Assembly (NCBI GenBank): GCA_965203985.1
Contig: CBDBDS010000005.1
Location: 10,074-74,073 of the forward strand
From: Dehalococcoidia bacterium
GTDB lineage: Bacteria; Chloroflexota; Dehalococcoidia; Lucifugimonadales; UBA3495
Length of the DNA stretch: 64,000 nucleotides
Reading direction: 5' to 3'
A model generated the notes under the pieces. The model saw only the letters and a list, made by a program, of their open reading frames with translations. It searched no databases and was not told where the DNA came from. Of this stretch, positions 5,249 through 60,400 are shown piece by piece (the first letter of the stretch is position 1; every line of letters begins with the position of its first letter). The translations under genes and the position numbers were made by a program.

Positions 5249-5291
5249 AATCCTGTTAAATCATAAAATCCTGTAAATCCTGCTTCAGACA
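5249..5291 (+). repeat. AATCCTG-rich palindromic element (family B), right half only
   Basis: aatcctgttaaatcataaaatcctgtaaatcctgcttcagac matches the right arms of 11654, 30242 and 60291. Confidence 0.75.
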
Positions 5292-11653: not shown

Positions 11654-11745
11654 GTCAGAAGCAGGATTTACAGGATTAGGAGATTTTCAGGATCAGATGG
11701 CCCCAATCCGGTAAATCCTCTAATCCAGCAAATCCTGCTTCTGAC
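11654..11745. repeat. family B palindromic element (MITE/REP-like)
   Basis: gtcagaagcaggattt...aaatcctgcttctgac terminal inverted repeats. Confidence 0.85.
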
Positions 11746-30241: not shown

Positions 30242-30351
30242 GTCAGAACCTTGATTTTCAAGATTTGGTGATTATCAGGATTAGTACCGTTCTGTGATGG
30301 ATCTCTCCCAATCCTGCCCAATCATAAAATCCCGCAAATCCTGCTTCTGAC
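30242..30351. repeat. family B palindromic element
   Basis: gtcagaa...ttctgac; closely similar to 60291-60400. Confidence 0.85.
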
Positions 30352-38176: not shown

Positions 38177-38207
38177 ATTTGCATGGATGCACAGGATGGG
38201 GAGGATG
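38177..38207 (+). repeat. solo end resembling the GxxExxY left inverted repeat
   Basis: atttgcatggatgcacaggatggggaggatg versus ttttacatggatagacaggataaacaggatg at 48131. Confidence 0.55.
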
Positions 38208-47411: not shown

Positions 47412-48119
47412 ATGCACGCCGAACAGCGCAGGGTAGACGACGACGGCCTCCATTATCTCGTCATATTTCCCGACGATTACGACGCCGACGCCGACTATCC
47501 GGTGGTGGTCATGCTGCATGGTTTTGGCGCCAACATGCAGGACCTCGCCGGCCTCGCCCCGTCCATCAACCGCAAGGGCTACGTGTACGTGTGCCCCAAC
47601 GCGCCGATCCCCTTTGAACTGGCCCCCGGCATGATCGGCTACGGCTGGCATCCGCCCCGCGGTCAAGCAACCGAGGAACATTTCGGCCAGGCGGAGACAT
47701 TCCTGGATGCCTTCTTTTCCGAGGTGCTGAAAGAGTTTCGCGCGCAGGAAGGCCGGGCCGTGCTGTTAGGTTTCTCCCAAGGCGGCGGCATGACCTACCG
47801 CATGGGCCTGGAGCGGCCGGACAAGTTCGTGGCCCTGGTTGCGCTCAGCGCATCCCTGCCGGACCCCGAGATCCTGCGACCGCGCCTGCCAGACCACCGC
47901 AAACAGCCGGTTTTCGTCGCCCACGGCCTGCATGACCAGATGGTTTCGATGGACAGCGCGCGCCGCACCCGGGAGTTTCTCGACGCGGAGAACTACAACC
48001 TGTCCTATAACGAATACAACATGGGCCACGAAATCCCGGTGGAAGTCCTCCGCGACATGGTTCCCTGGATGGAAGCCCTGCTGCCCCCGCTGGTGGAAGA
48101 AACCGACCGCATCTTCTGA
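47412..48119 (+). CDS. phospholipase/carboxylesterase (alpha/beta hydrolase)
   Basis: LHGFGAN, GFSQGG, AHG..D, MGHEI. Confidence 0.9.
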   Translation: MHAEQRRVDDDGLHYLVIFPDDYDADADYPVVVMLHGFGANMQDLAGLAPSINRKGYVYVCPNAPIPFELAPGMIGYGWHPPRGQATEEHFGQAETFLDAFFSEVLKEFRAQEGRAVLLGFSQGGGMTYRMGLERPDKFVALVALSASLPDPEILRPRLPDHRKQPVFVAHGLHDQMVSMDSARRTREFLDAENYNLSYNEYNMGHEIPVEVLRDMVPWMEALLPPLVEETDRIF

Positions 48120-48128
48120 CCAGATACG

Positions 48129-48586
48129 AATTTTACATGGATAGACAGGATAAACAGGATGGAACGATGATACATTCGGATTTGACCAGTAAGATAATCG
48201 GGTGTGCTTTTTCCGTTAGCAATGAGCTCGGCGCCGGTTTCCTGGAATCGGTGTACGAGAAGGCTATGGTTGTTGCCCTGTCGGATGCCGGGGTTAGAGT
48301 TCAAGCGCAGGTGCCTATCAGCGTGTGTTTTCGCGGCCGGCCAGTCGGCGACTTTTACGCAGACTTGCTGGTTGGTGAGAGTGTGATTGTCGAACTCAAA
48401 GCAGTGCCAGCACTGACGCCACAAAACGAAGCGCAGATAATTGACTACCTCAACGCCACCGGCATTCCCGTGGGATTGTTGATCAACTTTGGCAATCCTA
48501 AACTCCAATATCGCCGCTTTACCCGCGGAAGCGGCTATCCCGCCCTCAAATCCTGATCCCGTTCATCCTGTACATCCATGTAAATT
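48129..48586 (+). mobile_element. GxxExxY gene bounded by ~32-bp imperfect inverted repeats
   Basis: Left ttttacatggatagacaggataaacaggat (48131-48160); right atcccgttcatcctgtacatccatgtaaat (48556-48585). Confidence 0.6.
48167..48556 (+). CDS. GxxExxY family PD-(D/E)XK-like protein
   Basis: LT.KIIG.AF.V.NELGAGFLESVYE, DLLV...VIVELKA, GLLINFG. The ORF-track start 48137 lies inside the repeat. Confidence 0.93.
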   Translation: MIHSDLTSKIIGCAFSVSNELGAGFLESVYEKAMVVALSDAGVRVQAQVPISVCFRGRPVGDFYADLLVGESVIVELKAVPALTPQNEAQIIDYLNATGIPVGLLINFGNPKLQYRRFTRGSGYPALKS

Positions 48587-48609
48587 AAGACCGTGGAGGT
48601 TTTGCAACT

Positions 48610-49536
48610 ATGAAAGCCACTGCCAAGCTGCGCCAAATGCTCGCGTCCGACCGGTTGGTCGTCGCGCCCTTCGTCCTCAATGCCCTGCACGCCCGCATCG
48701 CCGAGGACGTGGGACACCAGGCCGTCTACATGACCGGCGCCGGCACTGCCGCCGAACGGGGCTTCCCCGACGTCGGCCTGCTGACCATGACCGAAATGGT
48801 CTCCAACGCCAAGTACATCGCGGACGCCATCAACATACCGGTGATCTGCGACGCCGACACCGGCTACGGCAACCCCCTCAACGTGCACCGCACCGTGCGC
48901 GAGTACGAGTCCGCCGGCGTGGCCGCCATCCACCTCGAGGACCAGGTGTTCCCCAAGAAGTGTGGCTTCTTCGCCGGCAAGCAGGTGGTTCCGGTCGAGG
49001 AACACGTCCAGAAGATCCGCGCGGCCTTGGACGCCCGCACCGATCCCGATTTCGTCATCATCGCTCGCTGTGACGCCTATGCCGTCACCGTCTGGGAGGA
49101 CACCGTCAGCCGTTGCCGCGCCTACGTCGAGGCCGGCGCCGACCTGGTGTTCGTCGACGGCATCAAGTCCCAGGACGACATCCAGCGGTACGCCGCCGAC
49201 CTGGCCGACGTGCCGCGCATGTACAACGGCGACCTGGCCACTACGCAGACCATGGACGAACTGGGTTACAAGATCATGATCTGCGGCAGCACCATCTGGC
49301 TCATTTACAAGCAGGTGCGAGCCGCTTACGAAGAGCTCATGAGCGACGGCAAGGTGGACCCGGACCGCTACGGCACCCGCTGGGATGTTGCTTCCGTTCT
49401 GGGCCTGGACGCCATCTACGAGCTGGAAAAGAAGTACGGCGTGCAGGATGTGGGCACCGACGTGGCCGGCCTCGCCGCGGCTCAAGCCGCCCAGATGGCT
49501 GCCGACGCCGCGGTGCTCACCCCGGCCGACGACTGA
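48610..49536 (+). CDS. isocitrate lyase/PEP mutase family (methylisocitrate/dimethylmalate lyase-like)
   Basis: DADTGYG, IHLEDQVFPKKCG, IIARCDA, AGADLVF. Confidence 0.92.
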   Translation: MKATAKLRQMLASDRLVVAPFVLNALHARIAEDVGHQAVYMTGAGTAAERGFPDVGLLTMTEMVSNAKYIADAINIPVICDADTGYGNPLNVHRTVREYESAGVAAIHLEDQVFPKKCGFFAGKQVVPVEEHVQKIRAALDARTDPDFVIIARCDAYAVTVWEDTVSRCRAYVEAGADLVFVDGIKSQDDIQRYAADLADVPRMYNGDLATTQTMDELGYKIMICGSTIWLIYKQVRAAYEELMSDGKVDPDRYGTRWDVASVLGLDAIYELEKKYGVQDVGTDVAGLAAAQAAQMAADAAVLTPADD

Positions 49537-60290: not shown

Positions 60291-60400
60291 GTCAGCAGCA
60301 GGATTTTCAAGATTTGGGGATTATCAGGATTGGAACCGTTTTGTGATGGAGATCTCCCAATCCTGCCCAATCATAAAATCCCGCAAATCCCGCTTCTGAC
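60291..60400. repeat. family B palindromic element
   Basis: Closely similar to 30242-30351. Confidence 0.85.

Follow-up and report, generated by a model that had tools for sequence, protein, structure and literature searches.

A GxxExxY-family nuclease gene framed by dispersed inverted repeats in a Dehalococcoidia genome: a candidate nuclease-repeat partnership

What kind of genetic unit is a small gene that lies between two conserved genes and is tightly bounded by inverted copies of a repeat found throughout the chromosome? Such a gene is present in the window, here the whole stretch of 64,000 nt of contig CBDBDS010000005.1 that was analysed. The host is a sponge-associated, SAR202-type Dehalococcoidia bacterium with a genome (G000) of 4.4 Mb and 62.6% GC; its close relatives are mostly MAGs, some of them labelled SAR202 or bearing sponge-style isolate names. 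A preliminary description of the locus proposed an autonomous selfish element, mobilised without a DDE, HUH or tyrosine enzyme. The cassette, its surroundings and one related repeat copy (the repeat is referred to as family 1) are laid out as follows.

47412-48119, plus strand: upstream neighbour, alpha/beta hydrolase (Abhydrolase_2; Pfam); its stop codon at 48117-48119 is the left breakpoint.
48120-48131, plus strand: left spacer, 12 nt, purine-rich, swapped along with the cassette (21-species alignment).
48132-48160, plus strand: left arm, three 9-bp-phased units ending in GGAT at 48139-42, 48148-51 and 48157-60.
48167-48556, plus strand: GxxExxY gene (PF13366, TIGR04256), PD-(D/E)XK nuclease, 129 aa.
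48556-48584, minus strand: right arm, the left arm inverted, overlapping the stop codon of the GxxExxY gene.
48585-48594, plus strand: right spacer, 10 nt; the exchangeable segment stops just 5' of GGAGG (junction alignments).
48595-48599, plus strand: GGAGG, the ribosome-binding site (RBS) of the downstream gene.
48610-49536, plus strand: downstream neighbour, PEP-mutase/isocitrate-lyase family (Pfam), ATG at 48610.
38178-38206, plus strand: solo family-1 arm, TTTGCATGGATGCACAGGATGGGGAGGAT (motif search).

The arms are 29 nt long (about 31 nt if the flanking AA and AT are counted), 86% complementary and 395 nt apart. Each is an array of phased units, TTTACATGGATAGACAGGATAAACAGGAT, and a genome-wide position table confines the conserved core of the module to exactly the 29 arm positions. 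The motif TTTACATGGATNNACAGGAT, with up to three mismatches, matched the window three times, at both arms and at 38178-38197, against 0.00 matches expected from shuffled sequences, which rules out a chance inverted repeat at 48132-48584. Imperfect inverted repeats tightly framing the gene, and a solo related end near 38178, had both been noticed in the preliminary description and are real. The GC content of the cassette is 51%, versus 63-66% in the flanks.

The last AGGA of the left arm, 8-9 nt 5' of the start codon, may serve as an RBS. The start codon is most likely ATG 48167 rather than the arm-internal ATG 48137, because the arm variants ACATCGAT and ACCGGGAT, found in relatives, have no ATG at 48137. 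Read in frame, the left arm in the window (48137-48166) gives MDxQDxQD, a spurious N-terminal extension of the ORF; gene callers may therefore over-extend such genes into the repeat.

The family assignment, made earlier from the translation, was borne out over the full length of the protein by PF13366 (135 bits, cut-off 22, E = 2e-39) and TIGR04256 (136.9 bits, cut-off 35, E = 3.8e-40); PDDEXK_3 (PF13366) was its sole Pfam match. An AlphaFold (AF2) model of the 129-aa protein had a pLDDT of 89, and Foldseek matched this model to Cas4 SSO0001, lambda exonuclease and LHK-Exo (E about 5e-4) as well as to a restriction-endonuclease-like protein. Residues E27, Y30, D66, K78, Q90, Y94, N107, F108 and R117 are invariant across 15 diverse GxxExxY sequences, and E76 is conserved in at least 90% of them. 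Because E27, D66 and K78 are invariant and E76 is this well conserved, the classical E...D...ExK nuclease site is intact, and E27, D66, E76 and K78 are the predicted catalytic residues. The cassette protein thus has both the restriction-endonuclease-like fold and the E...D...ExK motif of the PD-(D/E)XK superfamily. No solved structure of the family was found in the PDB by sequence, even with E values as high as 10. The GxxExxY/PF13366 family is very large, and its function was still listed as unknown in a 2012 survey of PD-(D/E)XK proteins (PMC3424549), and the searchable literature mentions it rarely, with no paper on its function or biology.

The same site was compared in 29 closely related species; in about 20 of them a GxxExxY gene flanked by both arms lies between the same neighbours. 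Orthologs of the downstream PEP-mutase-family gene were found in 80 genomes. Empty alleles, which the preliminary description had proposed to look for, occur in G001, L010 and L015; in the last two the hydrolase stop is followed directly by the RBS and ATG of the next gene. Unrelated inserts occupy the gap in L019, L020 and G007. The G007 spacer (L258) holds about 310 bp of unrelated repeat-like sequence, and a related GxxExxY cassette is found elsewhere in that genome. This copy, of type 1b, lies apparently downstream of lepA between two complete family-1 hairpins, and groups in the tree with copies of Opitutales and Latescibacterota MAGs. Exact-protein look-ups for both flanking genes gave no match, and one metagenome scan returned a single close contig.

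In an alignment of 21 filled loci the GGAT columns were invariant in both arms. Identity across the filled loci was 65-77% for the GxxExxY protein and 83-98% for the flanking proteins. Pairwise nucleotide identity of the gene was bimodal, 97-99% or 65-73%, whatever the identity of the flanks (85%-97%): the high-identity pairs are G005/G009 (99.4%) and G000/G014 (96.8%), and all other pairs fall at 65-73%. The sisters G019 and G004 have flanks that are 95.6% and 97.1% identical and genes that are 69.9% identical; for the sisters G012 and G023 the values are 97.6%, 96.4% and 67.2%. The divergent block in both of these independent pairs runs from the hydrolase stop codon to the GGAGG of the next gene, and a filled and an empty sister (G016 and G001) show a clean 487-bp difference with the same limits as the swapped block. 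A gene difference of 30% beside a flank difference of 3%, when cassettes are near-identical at 5-8% flank divergence, rules out gradual divergence in place. The protein tree of the locus also conflicts with the rpoB tree of the genus. Taken as a whole, these alleles show a discrete unit that is gained, lost and swapped.

Flank identity is 95-100% up to the breakpoints with no donor-type divergence, as is also expected with conspecific donors, and homologous recombination between conspecific alleles could also produce sharp breakpoints. Neither a consistent direct repeat indicating target-site duplication nor an excision scar was found in five junction comparisons, among them the filled-versus-empty or replaced junctions of G016/G001, G019/G004, G012/G023 and WIN/L010.

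The arms of the cassette belong to a large repeat population. We found 134 family-1 arm copies by regular expression and 137 by profile search in the 4.4-Mb host genome, so that gene-less, MITE-like derivatives, as had been suspected, are abundant. The consensus over 29 nt is TTTRCATSGATGNACAGGATGRACRGGAT, and upstream of the module there is a weaker genome-wide preference, G-rich then A-rich. Adjacent +/- pairs 56-211 bp apart, 31 in number, are gene-less hairpins of several subfamilies. A single +/- pair is 455 bp apart; it is the GxxExxY cassette and the only pair filled by its enclosed gene. One other gene-enclosing +/- pair below 3 kb was detected (2,901 bp, with a histidine-kinase/response-regulator gene), and it is probably two solo arms. 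No classical insertion sequence bounded by family-1 arms was found in the host genome. A family-1 arm is also present in the closest relative, G014, in the stretch syntenic to 38178-38206, where only one flank could be matched. Although G000 and G014 are about 10% diverged, many of their dispersed copies are orthologous and therefore old, not freshly moved. Others differ between the two genomes in that a whole spacer is replaced, half of the element is lost or a further insertion is nested in the hairpin loop.

The host genome contains only two GxxExxY genes. The second, referred to as type 2, is 42% identical to the first (type 1) and is embedded in a different repeat family, GTCAGAAGCAGGATT...AATCCTGCTTCTGAC, which is likewise made of GGAT(T) units. 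About 260-290 arms of this family 2 are present in the host genome. The "family B" palindromes of the preliminary description turned out to be family 2, with GTCAGAAGCAGGATT-type arms at four positions in the window against 0.1 expected.

11654-11745, no strand assigned: family-2 hairpin element, GTCAGAAGCAGGATT...AATCCTGCTTCTGAC.
60291-60400, no strand assigned: family-2 hairpin element.
30337-30351, minus strand: family-2 arm, the right end of the element noted earlier at 30242-30351.
5276-5290, minus strand: family-2 solo arm.

G014 lacks the hairpin of 11654-11745 at the orthologous site, and the two genomes differ there cleanly by about 112 bp; one family-2 insertion showed at most an ambiguous TT as target duplication. 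Type-2 genes were identified in six genomes of the genus at no fewer than four distinct loci, in all cases with family-2 hairpins immediately on both sides. The type-2 gene of the host (L167, G000 C13:684459-685600) sits inside tandem arrays of family-2 half-elements, with at least seven units on each side and a period of about 70-100 bp. When 4066 crude genes were examined, a repeat of either family lay within 120 bp on one side of 289 and on both sides of 18. Both host GxxExxY genes are among these 18, for which the chance is about 2e-5.

Repeat abundance was set against nuclease type. Family-1 counts (up to two mismatches) were 15-145 in 18 genomes with a type-1 gene and 0, 0, 2, 5, 7, 28 and 104 in seven genomes without one, and for family 2 the six genomes that have a type-2 gene gave 124-258 copies and all others 0-96. 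Brownian-motion simulation on the rpoB tree of 24 congeneric genomes gave P = 0.0056 when family 1 was paired with type 1 and P = 0.0001 when family 2 was paired with type 2. General streamlining may confound this correlation, because the smallest genomes are also those that have neither gene nor repeats, and repeats may be under-represented in short-read MAGs. The cross pairings were not significant in the same simulation (P = 0.20 and 0.065). There are exceptions to the coupling: genomes without any GxxExxY gene include G021 with 104 family-1 copies and G024 with 28, and 74-96 family-2-like copies are present in G019 and G004 without a type-2 gene. An arm remnant lies about 185 bp upstream of the PEP-mutase gene in G021. 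No Y1/RAYT transposase (PF01797) was detected in 41 genomes (the host and 40 relatives), and control genomes did match. RAYT-driven REPs are thereby ruled out as the origin of the repeats, and the cassette is associated with no enzyme of the DDE, HUH or tyrosine kind, as the preliminary description had proposed.

The terminal unit of the arm occurs in several variants (ACATGGAT, ACATCGAT, ACCGGGAT, ACAGGGAT and GCATGGAT). Within a cassette the two arms always have the same variant, which goes with the clade of the protein; gene and arms therefore travel and evolve together. Allele-specific tracking was tested with the dispersed copies that have ACATCGAT and ACCGGGAT ends; these did not follow the arm variant of the resident allele. 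For example, there are 52 ACATCGAT copies in G019 and 35 in G023, though the cassettes of these genomes carry other variants. A strict allele-specific engine is not supported. The independence of dispersed variants from the resident allele, together with the repeats of G021 in the absence of the gene, suggests that recognition probably rests on the shared inner ACAGGAT units; repeat turnover is probably slow.

Arms of the same design were found to frame GxxExxY genes not only within the genus but also in further families of the order and across many phyla; the preliminary description had suggested looking for such framing. Two other families of the order have single GxxExxY genes framed by inverted arms of other units (CCACAGAGG..., CGCAGAT...). 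Across 68 scorable loci from many phyla, the median inverted-repeat score of the flanks (the highest-scoring inverted match of the 160 nt before the gene with the 160 nt after it) was 14.5, versus 8 in both controls. The score exceeded the 99th percentile of the between-locus control at 20 of the 68 loci; since units are shared among loci, this control is conservative. Visual inspection showed arms of 2-4 phased units at about 45 of the 68, for example NNACAGGAT, AACGCGGAT, AACACGGAT, CGCAGAT and CACAGAT. Twelve such genomes from other phyla contain 5-141 dispersed GGAT-CAGGAT-CAGGAT modules each, often as close +/- pairs, and the reversed pattern gave 0. GxxExxY genes 64-68% identical, with the same CATGGAT/ACAGGAT arms, were found in an Opitutales MAG (L172), a Latescibacterota MAG (L174) and an Anaerolineae MAG (L173). 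These genes are as close to the window gene as are congeneric alleles of the same site, which suggests that gene and arms have been transferred across phyla.

How far, then, does the reading as an autonomous selfish element hold? Two of the three refuting conditions named in the preliminary description, a lack of empty alleles in relatives and a lack of conserved inverted repeats around homologs, were checked, and both results favour it, as do the gene-less derivatives, but "autonomous selfish" goes beyond the evidence. The term is too strong because about 20 species have one copy of the gene at one and the same chromosomal site, with no consistent target-site duplication, because dispersed variants ignore the resident allele and G021 has its 104 repeats with no GxxExxY gene, and because conspecific homologous recombination could account for the sharp breakpoints.

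Several known systems offer closer comparisons. In REPIN/RAYT systems, REP doublets are accompanied by a single-copy REP-associated tyrosine transposase (PMC3116915; PMC3337134; PMC5581495; bioRxiv 10.1101/2021.07.10.451892). The cassette described here is similar in that a single-copy enzyme gene is framed by its own repeats at a long-held chromosomal site, tens to hundreds of repeat copies are dispersed as inverted, hairpin-forming doublets, and each enzyme lineage is paired with its own repeat family. Repeats tend to be few or absent without the gene, an association that is significant with phylogenetic control and has G021 and G024 as exceptions. It differs in encoding a PD-(D/E)XK nuclease of about 125 aa and not an HUH/Y1 transposase (PF01797 being absent), in having arms of three 9-bp-phased units and not a single REP palindrome, and in the replacement of the fixed-site gene by very divergent alleles between sister species.

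In NTS/Ssn systems, GIY-YIG site-specific single-strand nucleases are flanked by the hairpin repeats that they cut (PMC11893778). Common to both cases are a small stand-alone nuclease gene flanked on both sides by a repeat of hundreds of copies, an association that extends across phyla and a specificity that varies between homologs. The superfamily is different (PD-(D/E)XK, not GIY-YIG, cd10448), as is the repeat design, and cleavage and biological role have been shown for Ssn, whereas the GxxExxY cassette is known from sequence. Like pairs of MITEs and parent insertion sequences, one gene-bearing unit and many short gene-less palindromes have terminal inverted repeats in common; unlike them, the present system has neither a known transposase, DDE or other, nor a consistent target-site duplication, and about 20 species have just one gene-bearing unit at a shared site, with a related copy elsewhere only in G007. 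The minimal mobile elements of Neisseria are cassettes between conserved flanking genes that are exchanged by homologous recombination. They resemble the present locus in their alternative cassettes, including an empty state, in one gap with sharp boundaries, but here the cassette has conserved inverted arms of its own, which are also found around relatives at other loci and in other phyla. On these comparisons the cassette behaves more like the REPIN/RAYT and NTS/Ssn partnerships than like an insertion sequence that jumps, and belongs to neither of the two partnerships; it looks like a kind of partnership that is known for other enzymes and unpublished for GxxExxY.

The most likely reading, to which we assign a probability of roughly 0.5, is that nuclease and repeats are functionally coupled partners: by acting on the arrays, the nuclease would influence how these are copied, lost and exchanged. 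The cassette would be the gene-bearing member of this partnership of nuclease and dispersed repeats, similar to REPIN/RAYT and NTS/Ssn and built on a minimal PD-(D/E)XK nuclease, at the same even odds. In such a partnership the GxxExxY protein would bind the phased units as an oligomer and cut at the array or immediately beside it, the probable substrate being a hairpin or cruciform formed by the folded-back arms in single-stranded DNA. In repairing or replicating such breaks, the host would copy, delete or exchange arrays, and occasionally the cassette too; the repeat population would thus be maintained while the gene stays single-copy at one site. Movement of the repeats by the nuclease itself is unproven, because there is no consistent target duplication and one genome (G021) has many repeats and no gene.

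If GxxExxY nucleases do act on the arrays that frame them, a pan-bacterial protein family would gain a function, the abundant intergenic hairpins of many phyla would gain an origin, and a new source of small sequence- or structure-specific nucleases would become available, as with Ssn. The genus is an unusually good test bed: it offers dozens of near-complete genomes, two nuclease types with two repeat families, and a single site at which filled, empty and swapped alleles all occur naturally. To the evidence on GxxExxY cassettes it adds swapped alleles, clean empties and phylogenetically controlled co-occurrence.

A bolder version of the partnership is possible but doubtful. HUH/RAYT-REPIN and GIY-YIG/Ssn-NTS would then be joined by a third class of within-genome replicators, based on PD-(D/E)XK and with GxxExxY proteins as its enzymes, in which a nuclease of about 125 aa reads phased 8-9-bp units and itself drives the copying, loss and site-specific exchange of hairpins and of its own cassette via breaks at fold-back arms. 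Were this true, mobility without DDE, HUH, serine or tyrosine chemistry would exist across bacterial phyla.

It is unlikely that the nuclease has an Ssn-like host function without any mobilisation, the arrays being genomic marks that it reads and the repeats having spread by other means. Such a nuclease might, for example, modulate transformation, recombination or defence by cutting single-stranded DNA that enters the cell or is being replicated, and the hyper-allelic cassette would reflect diversifying selection on specificity. There is a published precedent, namely small nuclease genes with cut hairpin repeats on both sides and hundreds of copies per genome (PMC11893778), and the single-copy gene at a fixed site, the extreme and bimodal allele diversity with replacement between sister species, and the close kin of the G007 copy in other phyla, from assemblies resembling the same kind of sample, are all in agreement with it. 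It leaves the multiplication of the arrays unexplained, however, and a specificity differing between alleles would leave most genomic sites unrecognised, given that dispersed variants are independent of the allele.

We regard as improbable a passenger or homing role, in which the hairpins are made or moved by another host or element function and GxxExxY is a parasite or cargo that lands in or between them. The type-1 gene does sit exactly at a would-be hairpin loop, and the type-2, G007 and L173 genes lie between two complete hairpins; other repeats are also nested in hairpin loops, and repeats persist without the gene in G021 and G024. Against this, there are only 1-3 gene copies per genome despite more than 100 potential landing sites, and no candidate mobiliser was found, neither a Y1 transposase in the 41 genomes nor a transposase element bounded by arms in the host genome. 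The specific pairing of nuclease type and repeat family would need explaining as well.

An ordinary accessory cassette exchanged by flank homology, with arms that are mere terminator or regulatory hairpins drawn from common intergenic repeats, agrees with the conserved flanking genes, with a gap that holds alternatives (empty, or the inserts of L019, L020 and G007) and with intergenic regions that are generally full of repeat families that turn over in this genus, but is disfavoured as very improbable by same-design arms around GxxExxY genes in many phyla, by the pairing of each paralogue type with a framing repeat family of its own, seen at no fewer than five independent loci, and by the chance of about 2e-5 that both host genes are doubly flanked.

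Further observations concern the repeat-rich regions of the host. Other intergenic repeat families were found inside family-2 loops or, between close species, in place of whole spacers (G000 C13:668251-668508, 659891-660098 and 654932-655171), among them cgagattgccgcgctgcgctcgcaatgac-type palindromes and ggattcccgc...gcgggaatgac hairpins. Spacer boundaries in these nested-repeat regions are often right at the RBS of the neighbouring gene. A multi-copy ORF of about 230 aa (MGSVQHHQTQARRFLS...) is present at G000 C1:162016-162711, C2:692006-, C13:347525-348220 and C13:702597-703283, accompanied by a conserved non-coding unit of about 430 nt between same-strand family-1 arms. This ORF (231 aa), which lies beside many repeats, was considered as a mobilising enzyme and gave only a weak HEPN match (E = 0.015); the 430-nt unit had no Rfam match as a structured RNA. 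The type-2 GxxExxY gene directly adjoins the 430-nt unit in G013 and G009. Beside a repeat cluster, a T-box leader match was obtained at L166:2803-2974 (G000 C13:349302-349473), with 61.9 bits against a gathering score of 93 and E = 7e-12.
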